DNA of 15,774 nt from a bacterium. Lineage in GTDB: Bacteria > Patescibacteriota > Patescibacteriia > Patescibacteriales > GWC2-42-12. The first letter of the stretch is position 1. Each line of letters opens with the position of its first letter. The stretch is from contig JAZDFM010000026.1 of the NCBI GenBank assembly GCA_043807825.1, positions 1 to 15,774 of the forward strand, in the 5' to 3' direction. Position numbers and translations under genes: made by a program. Under the pieces are notes generated by a model, which saw nothing but the letters and a program-made list of their open reading frames with translations, was not told the origin of the DNA and did no database searches. Shown here piece by piece: positions 2,393 through 14,481 of the stretch.

Positions 2393-5347
2393 ATGCCAAA
2401 CAAAATATTAAAATTATCAATTTCATTGATTTTGGTAATATCCGCTTGCTGTATTTTCAGCTATGACAATTTTACAACTCACCCGTTGCTGTCGGAATCA
2501 GCCGCCGCCGTGTATGGCAAACAAGCTGGCGCTAAATTAACCGATCAGCAAAAACAATGGATTATTAAAGGCTCAATCAATGAAGACATTGATCCGCGCT
2601 ATCTGAATCATTTTTACGATCCGACAACAGGCAAGGGATTGGACGGCTGGGATGTATATAAGAAATTTAACATAAAAGTCAATGGCAAATCAGCCAAACA
2701 ATGGGCGAAAAATCAAGACAGCGCCACTGGAGATTATTCTGAATCCGCGATTTTAAAAAATTATCAGGATGGCGATTTATCCCGCGCTTATCAGGGAATT
2801 GGCCATATTTTGCATTTAATACAGGATATGGCTGTTCCGGCGCATACAAGAAACGATCCGCATTCCGCCGGCGATCCTTATGAAAAATGGGCCGAACAAC
2901 ACGGAGCTATAGATTCAAGCAGATTGAATTTTATAGCTGTGGATAATCTTGATCAGGCTTTTGATAAAATGGCTAATTATTCTCATGATAATTTTTTCAG
3001 TAGAGATACAGTTAATGTTAATAATATAAAAAATTATAAAACAGCTATTGAATTAGTGGATGGTAAAAATAGAATGTATTTATTAAATACAACTGATAAT
3101 TATTTATATAAATTTGCTTATTCAAAAAATCCTGAATGGATTATGCCAGTTTTTCAAGTTGACGATGACCCCTCACTCCACCAAGACTACTGGAACATGC
3201 TTTATCCAAAAGCCGTGGGCTACAGCGCAGGAGCGATAGATTATTTTGTCAAACAATTCGCCAAAATTGATCAAGCTAAAAAAGAACAAGAGCAAATAAG
3301 TTTGTTTGATAAATTAAAAAATTCATTAGTTGGTTTAACCAATGAAGCAAAATATGTTTGGGGCGATGTATATATGGCGCAGAACAAAGTTTTGGCAAGC
3401 GGGTATGATAATATTGTGAAATTGGCTGGTAAAACTAAAAATAGCCTGCAATTTTCATATTCATACGCTAAACCGACCACTGCCCCCGCCCCTCTTCAAA
3501 TCACGGTGCAAGATAAGCCGGCCGGCAGGGTTTTAGCGGCTTCAGAACAGGCTGGACAGGGAGAAAAATTTCAAATCCCCCCTACCCCCTTTAATAAAGG
3601 GGGTGAAAATGCCAAGCCTGTTCAAACCGTGAATGTTCCGGCAGTCAAACAAACAGCGATTGCAAAAACTGTTAATCCTAAAATCCCCCCTGCCCCCTTT
3701 GATAAAGGGGGTGAAATCAAGCCTGAACCTAAAATCCCCCCTACCCACTTTGATAAAGGGGGAGAAGCCCCGGCAATGCATCGCAAAGGCTCTGACAGCC
3801 TGCCTCCGGAAACATCTATTTTATCGGCTCCGAATGCTGTAAGCAGTTCAACATCTGCCTCATTTGTTTTCTCTTCCAATGAAGCTGATTCTTCTTTTGA
3901 ATGCGATTTGGATAATGCCGGATGGCAGGAATGCTTGCCTGCGCAGGCGGGCGGCGTTACCAATTTAAGCAATCTGTCCGAAGGCTCGCATAATCTGAAA
4001 GTTAGAGCGCGGGACTTGTTAAACAATATTGACCAAACACCTGCCGAATATAATTGGATTGTTGACACTGTTGCTCCGATTGTGTCAATAACAAGCTATC
4101 CTCAATCAATTTCAACTTCAACAACCGCGAATTTTCAAATTGATTCAAATGAAAATGAAGCAAGTTTTATCTGCCAATTAGACATGAATCCGTGGCAGGA
4201 ATGCTCGGCAACGACAAGCGCGGCCGATTTGATTGACGGTTGGCATATTATGGAAGCCAAAGGAATTGATATTGCAGGAAACACAAGTTCGTCAACCGCG
4301 ATAACTTGGATTATTGACACCGCGGCTCCGGCATCGTCTGTTTCCGCGTTGCTCGCCGAATATCCATCAACCGGATTTTCCGTAAGCTGGAGCGGAACCG
4401 ATGGACAAGCTTCCACCACCAGCGGTTTGGCTGATTTTGACATTCAGTATAAAATAGGTTCAGGACAATGGCAGAATTGGATTATGGCAACAACCACAAC
4501 CAATGCTGTTTTTGATATTATTGTTAATAACGGCAGTTCTGTTTATTTTCGTTCTAGAGCTTCTGATTCAGCAGGCAATCTGGAAAATTGGCCGGACAAT
4601 GAAAACGGAGACGCAAGCGCGGCGATTGCGTCTTTACCTCCGGCGCAACCCCCGATTGTTTTAAGCGATGTTTCATCGGCATTAAGCAATTGGAAATCGT
4701 CTTTTTCATGGAAGCATACCGTCAATGGGAATGATCCTGTATTGGTGGTGAGTTTGCATGGAGACGGAGATTATCTTAATGACGATGCAGTGACATACGA
4801 TGGCCAAACATTGAGTTTGGCGGTTAAAAAGATTCATGGCGCGTATGACAATAAAGCCGTATTTATGTATTATCTTGCGAATCCGACTCAAGGGGAGCAT
4901 GATATAACCGCTAAAGTATGGGGATTGCCTTTCGCGGCTTCAGCAGCCACATTTTTAAACTGCGATATCTCAGATCCTGTGGGCTTGGCAGATTCATTTT
5001 TTAAATCGCAGTATGATTATGTGCGAACGATTCCTATGCCTGACTATGTTACGATGTCTAATTATGCCACAACAACTATCAACGGAATGATGCTGATTGA
5101 CGCTGTGACTTATGGCAGGTTTGATGATATTTCAGCAGCATCTCCAGGAGAAGGCCAAACGCAATATTTTGAACAAAAGAGTACTCCGCCGGGCGGAGCG
5201 TGGTTTGGACAAACTATTTATGATTATCTTTACGCGGGGCAAAGCTATAAGTTAGTTGAATCGGCCGGTTTGCATTCCATGGATTGGATAACAGACGATC
5301 CTCAATCCGCTGTTCATGTTATTATAGGATTGAATCCGAAGCCGTAA
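2393..5347 (+). CDS. large secreted/lipid-anchored surface protein: zinc phospholipase-C/S1-P1-nuclease-like N-domain, repeat-derived linker, tandem Ig-like/Fn3-like modules, unknown C-terminal domain
   Basis: 984-aa ORF. Signal peptide with a lipobox-like LVISAC. NHFYDP and GHILHLIQDMAVPAHTRNDPH resemble the His/Asp metal-ligand blocks of the Zn-dependent PLC/P1 nuclease fold. Two about 85-aa repeats (..SASFVFSSNEADSSFECDLDNAGWQEC..WIVDTVAP and ..TANFQIDSNENEASFICQLDMNPWQEC..WIIDTAAP, roughly 3803-4330) are followed by an Fn3-like module (FDIQYKIGSGQWQNW). Confidence 0.85.
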   Translation: MPNKILKLSISLILVISACCIFSYDNFTTHPLLSESAAAVYGKQAGAKLTDQQKQWIIKGSINEDIDPRYLNHFYDPTTGKGLDGWDVYKKFNIKVNGKSAKQWAKNQDSATGDYSESAILKNYQDGDLSRAYQGIGHILHLIQDMAVPAHTRNDPHSAGDPYEKWAEQHGAIDSSRLNFIAVDNLDQAFDKMANYSHDNFFSRDTVNVNNIKNYKTAIELVDGKNRMYLLNTTDNYLYKFAYSKNPEWIMPVFQVDDDPSLHQDYWNMLYPKAVGYSAGAIDYFVKQFAKIDQAKKEQEQISLFDKLKNSLVGLTNEAKYVWGDVYMAQNKVLASGYDNIVKLAGKTKNSLQFSYSYAKPTTAPAPLQITVQDKPAGRVLAASEQAGQGEKFQIPPTPFNKGGENAKPVQTVNVPAVKQTAIAKTVNPKIPPAPFDKGGEIKPEPKIPPTHFDKGGEAPAMHRKGSDSLPPETSILSAPNAVSSSTSASFVFSSNEADSSFECDLDNAGWQECLPAQAGGVTNLSNLSEGSHNLKVRARDLLNNIDQTPAEYNWIVDTVAPIVSITSYPQSISTSTTANFQIDSNENEASFICQLDMNPWQECSATTSAADLIDGWHIMEAKGIDIAGNTSSSTAITWIIDTAAPASSVSALLAEYPSTGFSVSWSGTDGQASTTSGLADFDIQYKIGSGQWQNWIMATTTTNAVFDIIVNNGSSVYFRSRASDSAGNLENWPDNENGDASAAIASLPPAQPPIVLSDVSSALSNWKSSFSWKHTVNGNDPVLVVSLHGDGDYLNDDAVTYDGQTLSLAVKKIHGAYDNKAVFMYYLANPTQGEHDITAKVWGLPFAASAATFLNCDISDPVGLADSFFKSQYDYVRTIPMPDYVTMSNYATTTINGMMLIDAVTYGRFDDISAASPGEGQTQYFEQKSTPPGGAWFGQTIYDYLYAGQSYKLVESAGLHSMDWITDDPQSAVHVIIGLNPKP
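3573..3610 (+). repeat. KGG-type miniature palindromic element, copy 1 (in-frame, encodes IPPTPFNKGGE)
   Basis: aaatcccccctaccccctttaataaagggggtgaaaat. Perfect 8-bp stem CCCCCTTT (3585-3592) / AAAGGGGG (3596-3603) with a 3-nt loop. Confidence 0.85.
3680..3717 (+). repeat. KGG-type miniature palindromic element, copy 2 (in-frame, encodes IPPAPFDKGGE)
   Basis: aaaatcccccctgccccctttgataaagggggtgaaat. Stem 3693-3700 / 3704-3711. Starts 108 nt after copy 1, a multiple of 3. Confidence 0.85.
3731..3767 (+). repeat. KGG-type miniature palindromic element, copy 3, slightly degenerate (encodes IPPTHFDKGGE)
   Basis: aaaatcccccctacccactttgataaagggggagaag. One stem mismatch (CCCACTTT). Starts 51 nt after copy 2, a multiple of 3. 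Confidence 0.8.
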
Positions 5348-5357
5348 GCGTATAAAA

Positions 5358-5900
5358 ATGGAAAAACAAAACAATAAAATAAATAATTCAGGCGGTTTTA
5401 CGATGATAGAGCTGTTAGCGGGCATTTTTATAATTGCCGTGATGAGCGGTTTTTTTATCGTTAATTACCATAACACGAACAAACGATCTGAATTGGGAGT
5501 TATCAAACAAAAATTGGCGTCAAACATAAGATTGGCGCAAAATTACAGTTTGGGATCAAAAACTTATGACGGAATCAACACCCCGGCCGGCGGATGGGGA
5601 GTTCATTTCAGCCTGTCGGATCCGAGCCATTATATAATTTTCGCGGATAAAAATTTGCCTAATGGAGATAAAACATATAACGCCGGCGAAGCCGTGGAAA
5701 CCGTATCTTTGCCTGACGGAATAACCATAAATTCCTTAAGCCCGGCGAATTCGGTTGATATTGTTTTTTTTCCGCCCGATCCGGTAACATATATTAACGG
5801 ATCAGGCAGTTCGCCGGCTAAAATAACTTTAAAAGAAAACATCAATAATTCAACCGCCGAAATTTCAGTTAATTTTTTCGGTTTGATTGACGCGAATTAA
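5358..5900 (+). CDS. type IV pilin-like / pseudopilin protein (GspH/FimT-like minor pilin)
   Basis: Prepilin class III leader and N-methylation motif: NNSGG|FTMIELLAGIFIIAVMSG, with Glu at +5. Starts 11 nt after the stop of the large surface-protein gene. Confidence 0.8.
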   Translation: MEKQNNKINNSGGFTMIELLAGIFIIAVMSGFFIVNYHNTNKRSELGVIKQKLASNIRLAQNYSLGSKTYDGINTPAGGWGVHFSLSDPSHYIIFADKNLPNGDKTYNAGEAVETVSLPDGITINSLSPANSVDIVFFPPDPVTYINGSGSSPAKITLKENINNSTAEISVNFFGLIDAN

Positions 5901-5901
5901 A

Positions 5902-6414
5902 ATGAAAATGAAAGTAATTTCAAATAATTCGGGAATAAGCATATTGGAAGTGATTGCCGCGGTCGCCATAATCGCCATAGGCATGGTCGGAGTTTTGTCG
6001 CTGGTAATTCAGAATGTTGAAGCGCAATATATAAATAAAAATATTTTAATGGCTTCCGGATTGGCGCAGGAAGGTTTGGAAATCGTCAGGAATATCAGGG
6101 ACGCCAATTGGCTGATTGAAGGCAACTTATGGAAACAAAATATAGTCGGAGACGGAACTTACACCGTAAGCTATGCCGGAATTTCAAGCGTTAACATGGC
6201 CGTAAATTCAATAAACGAAGCCGGCGCCAGATTGTATGTTGACGGCAACGGGCTTTATACCAATTCAGTTACGGCATCGGCGACGAATTTTTATCGCCTG
6301 ATAACTATTGTTGACAATGGAGATTATTTGGATGTGAAATGCGTTATCCGATGGGCCGACGGAACGCAAAACCATAATTACGCGGCTGAAACCTATTTAT
6401 ACGATTGGCGATAA
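5902..6414 (+). CDS. type IV minor pilin-like protein (PilV/GspI-like)
   Basis: I prefer the ATG at 5902, 2 nt after the upstream stop, over the TTG at 5887. Motif NNSG|ISILEVIAAVAIIAIGMVGVL with Glu+5. Confidence 0.75.
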   Translation: MKMKVISNNSGISILEVIAAVAIIAIGMVGVLSLVIQNVEAQYINKNILMASGLAQEGLEIVRNIRDANWLIEGNLWKQNIVGDGTYTVSYAGISSVNMAVNSINEAGARLYVDGNGLYTNSVTASATNFYRLITIVDNGDYLDVKCVIRWADGTQNHNYAAETYLYDWR

Positions 6415-6416
6415 AT

Positions 6417-6986
6417 ATGATATTATTATTCAAAAAAATAAAAGATAACAGAGGAGTGAGCTTGATAGAATTGGTTGTTTCAATTGCGATTTTTTCGGTT
6501 TTGATATTATCATCAACGCAAATATTCAAAATGGTCGTTGACGGCCAAAGAGGAGCCGTAAGCGCGCAAAATGTCCAGGATAGCATAAGATACGCCATGG
6601 AAAAAATAAGCAAAGAAATCAGAATGGCTCAAATCAGCAATGCTTCATGCTATGGCGCGGCTGTTTACAAAGTTTTCAATCCGGCGAACGGCGGAACGGA
6701 ATTGTATTTAAAAAACAAAGACGGCAATTGCGTAAATTATTATTTGGAAAACAACCGGCTGAAAATAATGTCCGGAACCGGCGCCGGAGCCATCGCCGAT
6801 TTCATAACTCCTGCCAAAATTGAAGTGAGCAATTTGAAATTTTATGTTAACGACGACTTGATTGGATCTTTCCACAGCAAACAGCCTTATGTAACCATGG
6901 CAATGGATATTAAAGCGGCCGGTCAGGCGATGCACGAGCAGAGAATGAAAATTCAAATGACTATTTCTTCAAGATATTATGAATAA
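6417..6986 (+). CDS. type IV minor pilin-like protein (PilW/GspJ-like)
   Basis: I prefer the ATG at 6417, 3 nt after the upstream stop, over the TTG at 6405. Motif DNRG|VSLIELVVSIAIFSVLIL with Glu+5. Confidence 0.7.
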   Translation: MILLFKKIKDNRGVSLIELVVSIAIFSVLILSSTQIFKMVVDGQRGAVSAQNVQDSIRYAMEKISKEIRMAQISNASCYGAAVYKVFNPANGGTELYLKNKDGNCVNYYLENNRLKIMSGTGAGAIADFITPAKIEVSNLKFYVNDDLIGSFHSKQPYVTMAMDIKAAGQAMHEQRMKIQMTISSRYYE

Positions 6987-9779: not shown

Positions 9780-9848
9780 TGTCATCCTCGCGAAAGCGGG
9801 GATCCATTCAGATTTTAAATCTGGATTCCCGCCTGCGCGGGAATGACA
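9780..9848. repeat. 69-bp nested inverted-repeat (REP/MITE-like) element in the gatC-gatA spacer
   Basis: tgtcatcctcgcgaaagcggggatcca...ctggattcccgcctgcgcgggaatgaca. The arms match at about 22 of 27 positions when one is reverse-complemented. Each arm also folds on its own (CTCGC-GAAA-GCGGG and CCCGC-CTGC-GCGGG). In the gatA frame it reads SSSRKRGS..LDSRLRGNDK. Confidence 0.8.
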
Positions 9849-9856
9849 AATTAAAT

Positions 9857-11320
9857 ATGACATTAAATCAATTAACAATAGCTGAAGCTATAAAAAAGCT
9901 TGATAAAAAAGAAATCACCTCGGTTGAACTTGCCAAGGCGTGTTTGACGCGCGTAAAAAATATTGACGGAAAAATCAAGGCGTGTCTGGCGGTTTGCGAA
10001 GAACAGGCGATGAAAGACGCGGAAAAAGCCGATGAGCGGCGCGCTCAAGGCGAAACTGGAGAATTGCTCGGCATCCCGTATTTTGCCAAAGATAATATTT
10101 TGACTCGCGGCGTAAAAACCACGGCTGCTTCCAAAATTTTGGAAAATTACATCGCGCCTTATGACGCGTCTATTATAAAAAAATTAAAGCGAGCCGGCGC
10201 GGTTCTTTTGGGAAAAACCAATTTGGATGAATTCGCCCATGGGGCTTCAACTGAAAATTCCGCTTTTGGGACGACGCGCAATCCATGGGATTTGTCCCGC
10301 GTTCCCGGGGGTTCTTCCGGCGGGTCGGCCGCCGCGGTCGCGGCTGATATGTGTTTGTTCGCTTTGGGAACGGATACCGGAGGCTCAATCAGATGCCCGG
10401 CAAGTTTTTGCGGAGTCGTCGGCATGAAGCCGACTTATGGCAGAAGCTCCCGCTTCGGCTTGATCGCGATGACAAGCTCAACCGATGTTCCCGGGCCTTT
10501 GGCGAAAACCGTGGGAGACGCCGCGATGATCTTGTCCGCTATCGCGGGAAAAGACGGGAATGATGGGACAACAGTTAAAATCCCCCTTACCCCCTTTGTT
10601 AAAGGGGGTAAAATGCAAGGCTTAACTATCGGCTTGCCTGAAGAATATTTTGTTGAAGGTGCGGAAAAAGGCGTGGAGCAAGCGGTGGAAAAAGCCATTG
10701 AAGATTTGAAAAAACTTGGCGTTAAGTTTAAAAAAGTGAGCCTGCCGCATACGAAATACGGCGTGCCTGCTTACTATATCATCACTCCTTCGGAAATAAG
10801 CTCAAATTTGGCAAGATTTGACGGCATTAAATACGGTTTAAGCATAAACGGCGAAGAAAAGATAAAAGCGGATTTGGCGGATGTCTACGCCAAAAGCCGA
10901 GGAAAAGGCTTTGGTGCCGAAGCCAAACGGAGAATTATGCTCGGAACTTACGCTTTGAGCGCCGGTTATTTTGACGCGTATTATCTGCAGGCGCAAAAAG
11001 TGAGAGTTAAGATAAAACAGGAATTTGACGAAGTTCTGAAGCAAGTTGACTGCCTGCTTACGCCGACCGCTCCGCATGTCGCTTTTAAAATCGGCGAGCA
11101 GTCAGGCGATCCTTTAAAAATGTATCTTGAAGATATTTTCGTTACCGGCGCGTCTTTGGCCGGGTTGCCAGCGATTTCCATTCCATGCGGTTTCAGCCGC
11201 GGCATGCCTGTAGGACTTCAACTGATTGGCAGGCATTTTAATGAAGACTTGCTGTTTAAAATAGGCAATGGTTATGAACAAGCAACGGAATGGCATTTGA
11301 AAAAAGCCGAAATTGTTTAA
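9857..11320 (+). CDS. gatA: Asp/Glu-tRNA(Asn/Gln) amidotransferase subunit A
   Basis: Start placed at ATG 9857 (MTLNQLTIAEAIKKLDKKEITSVEL, a typical GatA N-terminus). Amidase signature GGSSGGSAAAVAA and DTGGSIR. The ORF-track start at 9761 only adds translation of the intergenic repeat. Confidence 0.93.
   Translation: MTLNQLTIAEAIKKLDKKEITSVELAKACLTRVKNIDGKIKACLAVCEEQAMKDAEKADERRAQGETGELLGIPYFAKDNILTRGVKTTAASKILENYIAPYDASIIKKLKRAGAVLLGKTNLDEFAHGASTENSAFGTTRNPWDLSRVPGGSSGGSAAAVAADMCLFALGTDTGGSIRCPASFCGVVGMKPTYGRSSRFGLIAMTSSTDVPGPLAKTVGDAAMILSAIAGKDGNDGTTVKIPLTPFVKGGKMQGLTIGLPEEYFVEGAEKGVEQAVEKAIEDLKKLGVKFKKVSLPHTKYGVPAYYIITPSEISSNLARFDGIKYGLSINGEEKIKADLADVYAKSRGKGFGAEAKRRIMLGTYALSAGYFDAYYLQAQKVRVKIKQEFDEVLKQVDCLLTPTAPHVAFKIGEQSGDPLKMYLEDIFVTGASLAGLPAISIPCGFSRGMPVGLQLIGRHFNEDLLFKIGNGYEQATEWHLKKAEIV
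10577..10614 (+). repeat. KGG-type miniature palindromic element, copy 4, in-frame inside gatA (encodes IPLTPFVKGGK)
   Basis: aaaatcccccttaccccctttgttaaagggggtaaaat. Stem 10590-10597 / 10601-10608. Same strand and same codon phase as the three copies in the surface-protein gene. Confidence 0.85.
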
Positions 11321-12201: not shown

Positions 12202-12897
12202 ATGTTAGTACAAAAATTCGATAATTTTCTACAATCAGTTGACCTAAAATCCTATCGGGATAAATATAGACCTATTAAAATTGTGGAAATGGATTTACCA
12301 AAAGAGATCCAAGCTATAAACTTACTCTACAAAATATATTGGAACAAGAAAGAGTTCTTGAGTTTTGAAAAATTTTATGAAGAATACCTAAAAGAGTATG
12401 GGGCTGATATTAAAAAATTTCAAGAAAAGACTGGGATGTGCGAGAAGTGTTTTAGTAAAGGATTGCCCGCGAGAATTTATAGAACATGGGCAAGCATTAT
12501 TACTCAGATACATGCTGGCTATGTAGCGGAGTCGGTTTTCGGTGTTGGTACAGTTTCAATGTCAGGGGAGCTTGATCATCAAGGGGCTGATTTTCAAATT
12601 CTGTATAAAGGAAAAATTCTAAATTATCAAGTAAAAAAGAAATCATTCAGTGGTGAGGTAAGACGCGGTAAAGGCGGAGTTAAAACTAAAATAGCTGGCG
12701 AATTTATTGATATTAATTACGAAGTTCCAAGTAGTGATTACTTCGAAAATCCAAAGAAAAAAGACGGTGAGTATAAACTTCCGTACAAAAGATTTCAAGA
12801 TAACAAGGAATTAAAAAGATTTTCAAATGGTTTTGTAGTTTTTACTTCTTACGCTTTTGAACAAAAGAAAAAAGAGATTGATGTAAACTTAAAATAA
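12202..12897 (+). CDS. candidate type II restriction endonuclease (PD-(D/E)xK-like), otherwise hypothetical
   Basis: 231 aa. Placement follows the usual C-then-R operon order, convergent with a methyltransferase. ELDHQGADFQILYKGKILNYQVKKK can be read as E...D-x13-QxK on alternating hydrophobic strands. I recognise no specific REase family, so the functional call rests mainly on context. Confidence 0.45.
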   Translation: MLVQKFDNFLQSVDLKSYRDKYRPIKIVEMDLPKEIQAINLLYKIYWNKKEFLSFEKFYEEYLKEYGADIKKFQEKTGMCEKCFSKGLPARIYRTWASIITQIHAGYVAESVFGVGTVSMSGELDHQGADFQILYKGKILNYQVKKKSFSGEVRRGKGGVKTKIAGEFIDINYEVPSSDYFENPKKKDGEYKLPYKRFQDNKELKRFSNGFVVFTSYAFEQKKKEIDVNLK

Positions 12898-14415
12898 TTT
12901 AGGAATAACTGTTACGGAAGAAATAGTTTTTTCGGCAATTTTTATATAATCAGGATTAATTTCAAACCCGATATAATTTTGACTCAACTCTTTTGCGGCT
13001 GCACATTCAGCCCCTGTTCCGACAAAGGGAACCAAAACCACTCCATCTTTTTTAGGCATGGCTGATTTTATTAATTTTCTGCAAATTTCTAATGGCTTTT
13101 GTGTTGGGTGTTTAACTATCTCGTGATCAGCGTGTTTTTTTAGTTCTCTTGGCTCAAAAACATTTCTTCCACAGGTATTACAGATAAACCATCTTTCATT
13201 CATACCGGCTCCTCCGGCTAATGCTGGTATTTTTATTACATCTCTTGGCAAGGCACCACCCTCGTGTGCCTTATAAACAGTTTCTTGACCGTTTGTACTG
13301 TATCGTCCAATTGTTCCTTTGCGTATTTTCCCAGCCGCTCCATTTAAAAAACCCTCAGTGTACGGCTCTCTTACTTCGTCACGATTAAAAACTGGGCTAT
13401 TTTTCCAAGCACAAATTATAGATTCATGGCTTCGTTGCCAAAAATTTAGAGAAGCAACATTTTTGTTTGTGTAATGCCAAATAAGCCACCTTTTACTTAT
13501 CGGTATTTCAACCGAAAGATAAGCAAGAATTTCGCTAAAACCATAAATAAACATTGTGCCGGTTGGTTTTAAGACTCTAATAGATTCATCTATCCAACTT
13601 TTTGACCAACGAATGTACTCGTTCATTTCTCGTTTATCCATGTTATTACCAAAATCTTTGCCGATATTATATGGTGGATCAATTATAATAACATCACAAC
13701 ATTCATCTGGTAATTTTCTTAATTCTTCAACTGCGTCATTTAAAATAATTTGATTGAGTGGTAATTTATTATTTCGTTTAATATTTTTTGATGTAATCAA
13801 CTCTTCTACAAAATTATTTTCATCGTTTTTTATTACATCAATTACAATACCCTGTATTGTTAGCGGAGTTTGTTTGGAAATAATTATGGGATCCATTGTT
13901 CTGTTGGCTGGCTGAAGTCTAATATGTCCTCTTTCCTTGTAAAACTTTTTTAATGTGGTTTCATAATTATCAATCAACGCTACAATCTTTTGTCCATTTT
14001 CGGCAGTATCTTGTTGTTTAACTAACACGACATCACCATCATTAATATTCTCTTCGATCATGCTGTTACCAATAACTCTTAATGCATAAAAATTGCCGTG
14101 GCTCGGTAATTTGCTCTGTGGTACAGCAACGATTTCTTTTTCTTTAATTGCTTCGATTGGTTGCCCGGCTGCAATATTCCCCATAAGCGGAATATTTATC
14201 ATTTTTTCACTCTCAAAAACAGAAATTGCTCTTGGCTGGTTATCTTCTTTTCTTAAAAAACCTTTTTCTTGAAGTTTTTTAATATGAAAATGGGCAGTAG
14301 AAACAGAAGCTATTTTTAGATGTTTCTTAATTTCTTCAAGAGAAGGGGCATATTTATGCTTGGAATAATATTGTTTTATAAAATCCAAGACATCTTTTTG
14401 TTTTTTAGTAAGCAT
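12889..14415 (-). CDS. LexA-like repressor/autoprotease fused to a beta-class (DPPY) N6-adenine/N4-cytosine DNA methyltransferase
   Basis: I prefer the ATG at 14415 (MLTKKQKDVLDFI, a typical LexA N-terminus) over the TTG at 14430. LexA part: wHTH, then Ala83-Gly84 in IAAGQPIEA, Ser118 in GNSM, Lys156 in TLKKF. MTase part: IIIDPPYN (13669-13680), HPTQKP, and a C-terminal VPFVGTGAE...GFEINPDY (motif IV before motif I, which defines the beta class). The stop overlaps the convergent ORF by 9 nt. Confidence 0.85.
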   Translation of the reverse strand: MLTKKQKDVLDFIKQYYSKHKYAPSLEEIKKHLKIASVSTAHFHIKKLQEKGFLRKEDNQPRAISVFESEKMINIPLMGNIAAGQPIEAIKEKEIVAVPQSKLPSHGNFYALRVIGNSMIEENINDGDVVLVKQQDTAENGQKIVALIDNYETTLKKFYKERGHIRLQPANRTMDPIIISKQTPLTIQGIVIDVIKNDENNFVEELITSKNIKRNNKLPLNQIILNDAVEELRKLPDECCDVIIIDPPYNIGKDFGNNMDKREMNEYIRWSKSWIDESIRVLKPTGTMFIYGFSEILAYLSVEIPISKRWLIWHYTNKNVASLNFWQRSHESIICAWKNSPVFNRDEVREPYTEGFLNGAAGKIRKGTIGRYSTNGQETVYKAHEGGALPRDVIKIPALAGGAGMNERWFICNTCGRNVFEPRELKKHADHEIVKHPTQKPLEICRKLIKSAMPKKDGVVLVPFVGTGAECAAAKELSQNYIGFEINPDYIKIAEKTISSVTVIPKLF

Positions 14416-14419
14416 ATTA

Positions 14420-14481
14420 TTGACAGACAATTTTTGTTAGGTGTATAATAGTATTATAGAAAATAAATAGAAAACTTACAA
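14420..14481. promoter_or_regulatory. overlapping divergent promoter pair with palindromic and phased-repeat candidate operator
   Basis: Plus strand: TTGACA (14420-14425), 18-nt spacer, TATAAT (14444-14449). Minus strand: TTGTAA (complement of 14476-14481), 17-nt spacer, TATAAT (complement of 14453-14458). The two -10 boxes form the palindrome TATAATAgTATTATA (14444-14458). ATAGAAAA occurs twice, 11 bp apart (14456-14463 and 14467-14474). Confidence 0.5.

Follow-up and report, generated by a model that had tools for sequence, protein, structure and literature searches.

The window analysed here is a stretch of 15,774 nucleotides that makes up the whole of a patescibacterial contig (JAZDFM010000026.1, assembly GCA_043807825.1, forward strand). 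Copies of a short palindromic repeat were found in two of its genes (Table 1). The first is the essential gene gatA, whose product matches the Amidase family (E 2.6e-152) and solved GatA structures (E 5e-156), and the second encodes a secreted protein. The original prediction had described a 38-nt element with a perfect 8-bp stem at 10577-10614, inside gatA. Its place and perfect pairing were confirmed, but the stem is 11 bp long (TTACCCCCTTT/AAAGGGGGTAA, 10587-10597/10601-10611). The predicted RNA fold has an energy of -16.1 kcal/mol (z -3.25), and 1 of 200 shuffled sequences was equally stable. As the open reading frame is intact, the element is expected to be translated as K-IPLTPFVKGG-K, corresponding to GatA residues 241-252, and the predicted peptide across it reads ...TTVKIPLTPFVKGGKMQGL.... 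The copy lies in the middle of the reading frame and is followed by TAAAATGCAAGG with no T-run, and thus does not have this feature of an intrinsic terminator. No Rfam family reached its gathering score anywhere in the window, and permissive Rfam scans of the element regions returned only generic hairpin noise. The TAAAAT present on both sides of the gatA copy is an isolated observation; it may be what is left of a target duplication, or else the beginning of another unit next to this one.

Table 1. Features of the window that bear on the gatA element.
Feature	Position	Strand	Remarks
Secreted multidomain protein, 984 aa	2393..5347	+	N-terminal Zn-phospholipase-C-like region, then Ig-like domains
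Copy 1, surface-protein gene	3573..3604 (core 3585-3603)	+	AAATCCCCCC-TA-CCCCCTTT-AAT-AAAGGGGG-T; translated QIPPTPFNKGGE
Copy 2, surface-protein gene	3680..3712 (core 3693-3711)	+	translated KIPPAPFDKGGE
Copy 3, surface-protein gene	3731..3763 (core 3744-3762)	+	translated KIPPTHFDKGGE
gatA CDS, host gene, 487 aa	9857..11320	+	intact, in frame through the element; P0001
Mosaic patch around the gatA element	10540..10639	+	diverged from L001, closer to more distant element-bearing orthologues
gatA copy of the three-arm repeat unit	10577..10611 (element to 10614)	+	matches the family consensus
gatA copy, tag and outer C-run AAAATCCCCC	10577-10586	+	
gatA copy, spacer TTA	10587-10589	+	
gatA copy, inner hairpin CCCCCTTT-GTT-AAAGGGGG	10590-10608	+	
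TAAAAT, directly 3' of the G-run	10609..10614	+	repeats the TAAAAT at 10576-10581 before the outer C-run

Three further copies sit in a low-complexity inter-domain linker (aa 395-457) of the surface protein. The claim that the same element occurs there three times, in the same orientation and phase, at 3573-3767 was borne out, with the copies spanning 3573-3763. The predicted folds have energies of -14.9 (z -2.75), -14.0 (z -2.3) and -11.1 kcal/mol (z -1.4) for copies 1, 2 and 3, respectively, and the hairpin of copy 3 is weakened because of one stem mismatch (CCCAC). Together with the gatA copy, they share one strand and one codon phase, following the pattern ATC CCC CYT RCC CMC TTT NNT AAA GGG GGW. 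The four copies account for eight matches to the element pattern on both strands of the window, compared with 0.06 expected from shuffled sequences. Over 44 nt, the gatA copy shares 84% identity with the copies in this unrelated gene on the same contig. Codon usage within the copies is atypical for the genome: CCC makes up 6.7% of the proline codons in the genes of the window but 7 of 10 in the copies (p 6e-7), isoleucine is ATC in four of four cases and threonine is ACC in three of three. Such codon usage shows a common DNA ancestry and not a selected peptide. Differences among the copies are about six non-synonymous to one synonymous. Homologues of the surface protein (P0124, P0125/6 and P0148), the best of which are only about 50% identical, have similar peptides at aa 395-455.

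In GatA, the element lies between a helix (residues 219-229) and a strand (257-261). Its site consists of variable alignment columns and is modelled by AF2 as coil with a pLDDT of about 60, in agreement with the variable linker that had been proposed. It had also been proposed that the element adds about IPLTPFVKGGK, as a clean insertion of 11-12 residues. However, the linker from the D-x-T-T motif to the L-x-I-G-x-P strand has 16 residues here and 18 in 50 distant orthologues, and in the alignment to solved GatA structures the element peptide overlies an existing segment, where the query is 2 residues shorter. A canonical linker plus the element was found in none of 120 GatA orthologues. Judged from these alignments, the unit stands in place of the gatA linker and causes no net lengthening. 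A metagenome scan with GatA yielded mostly distant relatives of 50-69% identity, which served as an outgroup only. The canonical linker pattern, (V)P(V)PDY, loosely resembles the element peptide IPLTPF.

Within the Patescibacteria clade with GatA identities of about 75% or more (many of 75-81%), this or related C-run/G-run hairpins are present at the same site, and element-bearing GatAs are interleaved with canonical and decayed linker versions; P0023, P0036, P0048 and P0057 have canonical linkers and no hairpin. A strong hairpin at the same codon position was found in the window, L002, L244, L245, L247 and L001 (shuffle z -3 to -3.9), a weakened or lost one in L241, L243, L003 and L242 (z -0.4 to -1.6), and none in the distant GatAs with canonical linkers (median z +0.25). 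The stems differ by lineage and include CCCCCTTT/AAAGGGGG, CCCTCTCCTT/AAGGAGAGGG and CCGCC/GGCGG. The element peptide decays freely across the orthologues. Re-phasing, nesting and swapping of variants at the site are seen in L246, L247, L244 and L245: the gatA of L246 uses a different frame of the same DNA by way of compensating +1 and -1 indels, nested palindromes add 11 residues in L247/P0015, and the L245 variant resembles the copies in the ligA of that genome, which gains about 20 residues from two palindromes. Beyond L247/P0015, nested palindromes also lengthen P0031, P0032, P0040, P0046 and P0064. The original prediction reasoned that sharing of the peptide by orthologous GatAs of unrelated lineages would make it ancestral sequence. 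Such sharing was found in part, as many related GatAs (about 75-81% identity) have this element or a relative of it in the same place. Because orthologues only about 74% identical in nucleotides also have it, the element is old at this site.

The closest comparison showed a sharply localized divergence. Against L001 (GCA_041643175.1), whose gatA is otherwise 93% identical, the window shows 46 differences within the 116 nt from 10530 to 10645 (40%), compared with 6.2% elsewhere in the gene (Fisher p 7e-22), and the sliding identity profiles agree. Such a diverged patch of about 100 nt relative to a 93%-identical relative points to patch replacement or recombination. Conversely, L241 is 94% identical to the window over 54 nt at the site, against a gene median of 74%; apart from L241, the nucleotide identity at the site is ordinary. 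The orthologue comparisons thus indicate a gatA site that is both old and patchy, with a mosaic patch around the element.

The gatA copy belongs to a much wider family. The family unit is about 34-36 nt long and consists of (A/T)AAT-C5-6, a spacer of 2-5 nt, C5-6TTT, a 3-nt loop and AAAG5-6. In 243 oriented instances, the unit has sharp edges and unconserved flanks: in the flank logo, (A/T)AAT precedes the outer C-run and an A follows the G-run, with neither GTAG nor CGTC, and no T-run on the right. The core was found in at least 120 stretches of the collection, in which mirror hairpins of matched composition gave 19 and 7. The third arm accompanies 145 of 173 genome and 173 of 193 viral core sites, compared with 0 of 19 and 0 of 7 mirror hairpins. 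These controls exclude a generic GC hairpin or chance. Members were found in Desulfobacterota, Nitrospirota, Planctomycetota, Omnitrophota, Chloroflexota, Proteobacteria, Patescibacteria and further groups. The family also extends to viral contigs and to plasmids from cultured cyanobacteria and Acinetobacter. In L020, another patescibacterium, an intergenic copy is identical to the gatA copy at 30 of 31 positions. The element also lies in the prepilin-peptidase gene pilD of L243, where it again matches the gatA copy at 30 of 31 positions, and of L245, as well as between genes in L246; the gatA, L020 and L243 pilD copies agree in tag and spacer and right down to the GTT loop. The proposed dispersed DNA-level repeat is thus borne out, with the same subfamily in gatA, in pilD, in the linker of a surface protein and between genes of related Patescibacteria. 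These comparisons establish, at the level of sequence, a repeat family of defined architecture whose copies share ancestry as DNA.

Most family members are non-coding, with 72-80% of copies outside long open reading frames, although the heuristics behind this figure are crude for GC-rich metagenome-assembled genomes. Arrays of units adjoin stop codons, the clear cases being on proviral contigs; a wider tally of positions at gene ends was blurred by spurious reading frames in GC-rich assemblies and by double counting, and only these cases are used here. Copies within reading frames use both strands and several frames, only the TAA-containing frame being closed, which, with the re-phased L246 copy, contradicts the idea that the element survives in one reading phase only. 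We clustered all open reading frames of about 155 element-bearing loci and found no recurring transposase, RAYT or integrase; the only recurring neighbours were phage structural genes, among viral contigs. The proposed check for target-site duplications revealed no family-wide signal (k=4, 20 versus 20.9 expected; k=5, 8 versus 4.3, p 0.04; k=6, 2 versus 0.9). Mobility in the strict sense is accordingly no more than a possibility, since neither a transposase nor a RAYT recurs next to the surveyed copies and no target duplication is seen. In Acinetobacter plasmids, the third arm varies by local duplication or deletion of an 11-nt arm. This polymorphism implies that the architecture can partly arise in situ, and the similarity across phyla could be partly convergent. 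Literature searches with sequence strings returned unrelated primers only, and those on in-frame palindromic elements in CPR bacteria returned nothing relevant.

We compared the unit with known repeat classes. The small dispersed repeats (SDRs) of Nostocales, which Elhai and colleagues reportedly described in 2008, are said to be dispersed, hairpin-capable sequences of 21-27 nt that replace sequence of similar length. Our unit is likewise very small and dispersed, is present on cyanobacterial plasmids and, going by that description, shows a similar replacement-type behaviour at gatA, but its family reaches far beyond cyanobacteria. REP, BIME and REPIN elements are GC-rich imperfect palindromes of 20-40 nt that are mobilized by RAYT, are extragenic and form tandem or inverted arrays at the 3' ends of genes (PMC3116915; PMC3733652), with a GTAG or CGTC tetranucleotide tag at one end (PMC3733652). 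The unit resembles them as a short, dispersed, imperfect palindrome that is mostly extragenic, arrayed and high-copy in some genomes. It differs in its tag, which is (A/T)AAT at the outer C-run without GTAG or CGTC. No RAYT-like gene was seen near the copies, in a survey that covered the neighbourhoods of about 155 loci and that a distant single-copy RAYT would escape. Furthermore, REP families are usually lineage-specific and by definition extragenic, whereas the unit is nearly constant in sequence across phyla and several copies are predicted to be translated. Rickettsia palindromic elements (RPEs), which are about 100-150 bp long, occur in and outside genes and are translated in frame in unrelated and even essential proteins at permissive positions (PMC10969869). 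The unit is similarly found both in reading frames (gatA, pilD and the surface-protein gene, by predicted translation) and in non-coding DNA (L020 and L246), so that RPEs, named as a precedent by the original prediction, are a fair analogy. However, RPEs are restricted to Rickettsia, are about 150 bp long, encode a conserved peptide specific to each family and add tens of residues, whereas the unit is about 34 nt long, crosses phyla, has a three-arm C-run/G-run architecture and replaced the gatA linker with no gain in length. Some copies look like terminators: in Acinetobacter, the unit begins right behind a stop codon and has a T-run after it, the plain form from A. radioresistens resembles an ordinary terminator, and repeated terminator-like elements have a precedent in the pneumococcal SPRITE (PMC10969869). 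However, the gatA and surface-protein copies lie in reading frames without a T-run, and neither the third arm nor the WAAT tag is a terminator feature. Compared with MITEs, the unit is far smaller and has no excess of flanking direct repeats.

Several explanations of the gatA copy were considered. The hairpin in gatA mRNA or DNA might be under selection as a cis-acting structure, for example for a pause between GatA folding units or for mRNA stability or processing, with the family supplying ready-made hairpins. The strong hairpins with different stems at one codon position, their absence from distant canonical-linker GatAs, and the seemingly compensatory CCCCC/GGGGG versus CCGCC/GGCGG between 93%-identical genes would fit this idea. 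However, the hairpin is weakened or lost in four relatives, hairpin-free canonical linkers persist in the clade, and nucleotide identity at the site is not raised except in L241. The variant stems also match multi-copy families elsewhere in the same genomes, as in gatA and ligA of L245, which suggests swapping of elements rather than covariation in place. A selected structure is therefore unlikely on the whole. Selection at the protein level, with IP(P/L)TPFxKGG as a short linear motif for binding or processing, is extremely improbable. The same peptide and frame do recur in gatA, pilD and the surface protein, and comparable peptides occupy this position in homologues of the surface protein. 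But synonymous positions are kept while amino acids vary, most family members are intergenic, in other frames or on the other strand, orthologues show free decay of the peptide, and in L246 the same DNA is read in a different frame; this idea was rejected on the strength of codon usage and reading frames.

Two further explanations concern the origin of the unit. A recent, clean, in-frame, RPE-like insertion in one permissive phase, adding 11-12 residues to GatA, could draw on the real and dispersed nature of the repeat, on the residues that nested palindromes add to the GatA of L247/P0015 and to the ligA product of L245, and on the TAAAAT on either side of the copy. We consider it improbable, and for the gatA copy it is already largely refuted: the linker is shorter than the canonical one with no linker-plus-element orthologue, the element is old, the closest relative differs by a diverged patch instead of a clean-edged indel, and the family uses several frames and both strands with no family-wide target duplication. 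Alternatively, the unit could have arisen or been perfected in place, by slippage and quasi-palindrome mutation of a proline-rich, CCN-rich linker, its likeness to other copies being convergent. C-runs and G-runs are prone to slippage, the Acinetobacter third arm is gained and lost by local changes, and the canonical linker is already like IPLTPF. However, the matches to the copies in the unrelated gene, to L020 and to the L243 pilD, the strongly atypical codons and the complete absence of the third arm from mirror hairpins make this origin very unlikely.

We therefore favour, with a probability of roughly 0.6, the reading that 10577-10611 is a REP-like passenger, translated and tolerated within a permissive loop of GatA. 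In an ancestor of the Patescibacteria clade, the unit would have taken the place of the canonical linker of about 18 residues, in a frame that has no stop codon and gives the Pro/Gly-rich peptide IPLTPF-KGG; because this peptide is loosely like the canonical linker, the enzyme would tolerate the unit. On first arrival, the linker may have been overwritten by template switching or short-patch conversion, or an insertion may have been followed by a compensating deletion. Since then, the site would have been a passenger evolving almost neutrally and at the same time a hot spot, changing by point-mutation decay, by re-phasing through +1 and -1 indels, by nested palindromes and by swaps for other family variants, and related lineages would exchange it as a homologous patch of about 100 nt. 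The hairpin probably has no required function for gatA, although its persistence with differing stems is what selection on structure would also give. More tentatively, the family may represent an undescribed, cross-phylum class of very small elements with the fixed architecture WAAT-C-run/spacer/C-run-TTT/loop/AAA-G-run that spreads by copy-and-overwrite, through template switching or short-patch conversion at hairpins, and not by cut-and-paste or target-duplicating transposition. Such a mode, which we regard as doubtful, would explain the replacement of a coding linker without lengthening, the re-occupation of the gatA position by variants, and the lack of a transposase or target duplication. 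If true, the near identity of the units between Patescibacteria, Desulfobacterota, Nitrospirota, cyanobacteria, Acinetobacter plasmids and viruses would mean either horizontal spread or dependence on a universal host function.

The units have practical consequences, as metagenome annotation acquires spurious peptides from them (such as IPLNPPFSKGE and PPLKKGGRGDL) and they can mislead alignment-based phylogenies of marker genes. The conservation of the three-arm architecture across phyla without a known enzyme poses a question for research on bacterial repeats. By analogy, the palindrome within gatA resembles the Rickettsia precedent and differs in that it takes the place of a loop. Canonical linkers and intact, decayed, re-phased, nested and swapped versions all occur side by side in the gatA of this clade, which offers a compact natural system for the arrival, decay and renewal of a repeat. 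If the replacement behaviour is general, very short hairpin repeats would rewrite protein loops at unchanged length, even in essential enzymes of bacteria with minimal genomes, and linkers would thereby vary rapidly in a way that ordinary indel-based scans miss.

The gatA of the window (Pfam Amidase, E 2.6e-152; solved GatA chains, E down to 5e-156), which has gatC directly 5' of it, contains a hairpin with a stem of 11 perfect pairs (TTACCCCCTTT/AAAGGGGGTAA). The perfect stem had been anticipated, although at a length of 8 bp. The calculated fold of -16.1 kcal/mol (z -3.25) was equalled by 1 of 200 dinucleotide shuffles. Three surface-protein copies share its strand and codon phase, as the original prediction stated, and peptides like theirs recur at the same inter-domain linker in surface-protein homologues. 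The core pattern gave eight matches in the window (four sites, both strands) where 0.06 were expected, so the repeat is real and beyond chance. CCC makes up 7/10 of the Pro codons in the four copies, compared with 6.7% in the window's 15 ORFs (p 6e-7); ATC is used 4/4 times (background 16%) and ACC 3/3 times. Differences among the copies are nearly all non-synonymous (P/L, T/A, P/H, N/D/V, E/K), GGT/GGA being the sole synonymous one. The atypical codons and non-synonymous differences argue against a peptide motif. The four copies are of common DNA ancestry, with no conservation of the encoded peptide. The chance test, the codon usage and the copies in unrelated contexts thus bear out a dispersed palindromic DNA repeat.

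The element in gatA occupies the place of the canonical GatA linker. A structure alignment placed 'kipltpfvkg..gk' over 'eqpvddylaalqkp' (4WJ3) and 'kvpvpewseevkke' (3H0L), leaving the window GatA two residues shorter than these chains at the element. In 50 distant orthologues, the linker from D-x-T-T to the L-x-I-G-x-P strand is 18 aa long, follows the type xxPVPDYxxALTGDVKG and gives no sign of a hairpin (median shuffle z +0.25); in the window it has 16 aa, and in close relatives 14-19 aa. This length of 16 versus 18 aa, and the finding of canonical linker plus element in 0/120 GatA orthologues, contradict the proposed clean insertion adding residues. An AlphaFold2 model (mean pLDDT 71.6) predicted residues 242-251 to be coil (pLDDT about 60) between helix 219-229 and strand 257-261, and the alignment columns here are variable, consistent with the variable, tolerant loop that had been proposed.

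All close GatA homologues of the window are from Patescibacteria. Most GatAs at about 75% identity or more have an element-like peptide at exactly the same site, which argues against the recent insertion of the original prediction. The peptides, and the site DNA compared in ten close gatA orthologues (L-numbers denote DNA stretches), are listed in the table. The L245 gatA stem resembles two palindromes within ligA of its own genome. A site-masked GatA NJ tree interleaved canonical, A, B, C and decayed states; being poorly resolved, it indicates patchiness rather than a number of events.

Features of the window, and states of the element site in relatives
Feature	Sequence	Position	Strand	Description
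gatA element	window	10577-10614	+	AAAATCCCCCTTACCCCCTTTGTTAAAGGGGGTAAAAT
gatA	window	9857-11320	+	487 aa; host gene of element
Three further copies	window	3573-3604, 3680-3712, 3731-3763	+	one gene, 984-aa secreted multidomain protein
TaqI-like restriction endonuclease gene	window	12202-12897	+	overlaps convergently with 513-aa fusion gene
513-aa fusion protein	window	12889-14430	-	LexA DNA-binding domain, S24 peptidase domain, N6/N4 DNA methyltransferase
Peptide flavour A	GatA site			IPLTPFVKGG
Peptide flavour B	GatA site			TPPAPLVRGE
Peptide flavour C	GatA site			PHPNPLLSKERE
gatA site	L241, L243, L002			window's unit, identical frame
gatA site	L246			window's DNA with compensating +1/-1 indels; first six codons SPLPPL
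gatA site	L244			CCCCCCCCAGCCCCCCTTGTCAGGGGGG
gatA site	L245			10-bp stem, different sequence, CCCTCTCCTT-GGT-AAGGAGAGGG
gatA site	L247			extra 33-nt palindrome nested in spacer, +11 aa
gatA site	L003, L242			decayed element
gatA site	L001			CCGCC...GGCGG
Acinetobacter polymorphic site	L159, L248, L249	L159 2500-2600		between CoA-transferase B stop codon and pcaF

Secondary palindromes nested in the spacer or loop of the gatA element (L247 7640-7705, protein P0015; P0031, P0032, P0040, P0046, P0064), for example CCCGCC-tcgaccaagtctt-tGGCGGG encoding 'PPASTKSLAGKP', are real net insertions by which some GatA orthologues gained 11-30 residues. One MAG, GCA_030689945.1 (L241 and L244), holds two different gatA genes, of flavour A (P0006) and flavour B (P0035), suggesting a mixed bin or strain mixture.

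Compared with L001, the closest gatA relative (GCA_041643175.1; 93% nucleotide identity), 46/116 positions differ within 10530-10645 (40%, versus 6.2% elsewhere; Fisher p 7e-22), the differences spanning 10540-10639. The L001 allele of this patch is shorter and common to L242, an 80% relative. L241, a 74% relative, matches the window at 94% over 54 nt of the patch, a value reached by 1.5% of gene windows. The diverged patch and the match to L241 indicate that the site changed state by homologous-patch replacement, most simply through recombination among related lineages. Relatives other than L241 show ordinary identity to the window here, which argues against a general DNA-level constraint on the gatA site.

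Other features surround gatA. A second, unrelated palindromic repeat with an 8-bp stem (GGATTCCCGCCTGCGCGGGAATGAC; 9812-9850, core 9825-9844) lies after gatC and before the start codon of gatA; in-frame reading gives 'DSRLRGNDK' and shifts the mechanical ORF start to TTG 9761. L001 and L243 have the same palindrome upstream of gatA, and L245 has two intergenic copies (ATTCCCGC-N4-GCGGGAAT). The ligA of L245 (7630-7700) has two other in-frame GC-rich palindromes, CCCTCCCCTT-GGT-AAGGGGAGGG and CCCCTCCTT-ACG-AAGGAGGGG, near the N-terminus of the NAD-dependent DNA ligase (705 aa, versus 685-695 aa in relatives); L243 also has the second (18468-18488), close to a recombinase gene. Three consecutive small pilin-like ORFs with N-terminal prepilin methylation motifs (5358-6986) sit between the surface-protein gene and ligA, and the order pilins-ligA-gatC-gatA is conserved in relatives. 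Because relatives have a DsbA-like gene after gatA in place of 12202-14430, this region resembles an inserted restriction-modification island, one that includes an unusual fusion of LexA and a methylase; a DUF3644 gene follows the fusion gene.

Scanned with a 19-nt core (17 specified bases), a collection of one genome per species gave at least 120 loci, those listed coming from Desulfobacterota, Nitrospirota, Nitrospinota, Planctomycetota, Omnitrophota, Elusimicrobia, Chloroflexota, Ignavibacteria, Beta- and Gammaproteobacteria, Patescibacteria and others. At a distance of 2-5 nt from the inner hairpin, nearly all matches listed have a second C-run after (A/T)AAT, or the reverse complement of this arrangement; the window copy has this extension too. 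The consensus of 243 oriented instances was (A/T)AAT-C5-6 / spacer / C5-6TTT / NNN / AAAG5-6 / A, with no conservation beyond the unit edges. Among the matches listed, the third arm was present, usually on one side only, at 145/173 genome and 173/193 viral core sites, and control mirror hairpins of the same composition in the same collection were 6-17 times rarer than the core, with the third arm at 0/19 and 0/7.

About 72-80% of the copies among the matches listed lie outside long ORFs. Those within ORFs lie on either strand and in several frames, so the predicted restriction to one reading phase does not hold for the family. The unit also occurs on viral or proviral contigs, sometimes as dense arrays in intergenic gaps adjoining stop codons, and, without annotation, on plasmids from cultured cyanobacteria and Acinetobacter. 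The 23.6-kb proviral contig IMGVR_UViG_3300035670_001258 (L124, L134, L155) holds more than 20 units; almost all of its intergenic gaps contain tandem arrays of them, repeating every 40-50 nt or so. Since such arrays have four or more G-runs on one strand, a G-quadruplex or i-motif is conceivable. Within Patescibacteria, one intergenic unit (L020) is identical to the gatA copy at 30/31 positions, and near-identical units lie in L246 intergenic DNA and in gatA. The same unit, in the IPLTPFxKGG frame, occurs about 30 codons into a prepilin peptidase (A24) gene in L243 (407-438) and L245 (2535-2566), at what looks like an orthologous site.

We found no protein family recurring beside unit copies at about 155 element-bearing loci, no family-wide target duplication and no matching Rfam family. 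Three Acinetobacter plasmids differ in whether they have the third arm, the difference being an 11-nt stretch of the 3' arm (TTTAGGGGGAT) that was duplicated in tandem or deleted; part of the unit architecture can therefore change locally by slippage. The plain form resembles an ordinary terminator. An adjoining CCCTCCC-type hairpin on these plasmids shows a similar arm-duplication polymorphism.

We favour, with a probability of roughly 0.6, a reading in which a REP-like repeat settled in a permissive GatA loop in the clade ancestor and has since been a translated, nearly neutral passenger, with patch recombination and swaps for other members of the family accounting for its renewal or loss. 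On first arrival the linker may have been overwritten, or an insertion may have been followed by a compensating deletion. Translation is suggested by the open frame in use and a Pro/Gly-rich peptide loosely like the canonical (V)P(V)PDY linker. The persistence of hairpins with different stems at one codon position would also be expected if the hairpin itself were selected in gatA mRNA; however, several lineages have a decayed hairpin and the clade still includes canonical linkers that lack one, and we consider this main rival unlikely.

Rickettsia palindromic elements (RPEs) are the closest in working, as translated palindromes at permissive sites (PMC10969869), and the analogy drawn with them in the original prediction holds as such. 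However, the unit is a quarter of their size, ranges beyond Rickettsia and does not lengthen its host protein at gatA; it is not a member of the RPEs. In size, location and clustering it resembles REP/BIME/REPIN sequences (PMC3116915, PMC3733652), but the GTAG/CGTC tag is missing, and a search of the neighbourhood of the copies brought up no RAYT. Some extragenic members have the appearance of terminators or of SPRITE-type terminator-like repeats, whereas the coding copies have no T-run. The replacing, non-adding behaviour at gatA recalls the small dispersed repeats (SDRs) of Nostocales, which in Elhai 2008 reportedly replace rather than add. The general phenomenon of palindromic repeats translated at permissive sites has precedent; what is surprising is that the unit replaces sequence at a site, in an essential gene, that has been occupied repeatedly, and that its three-arm architecture is found across phyla.
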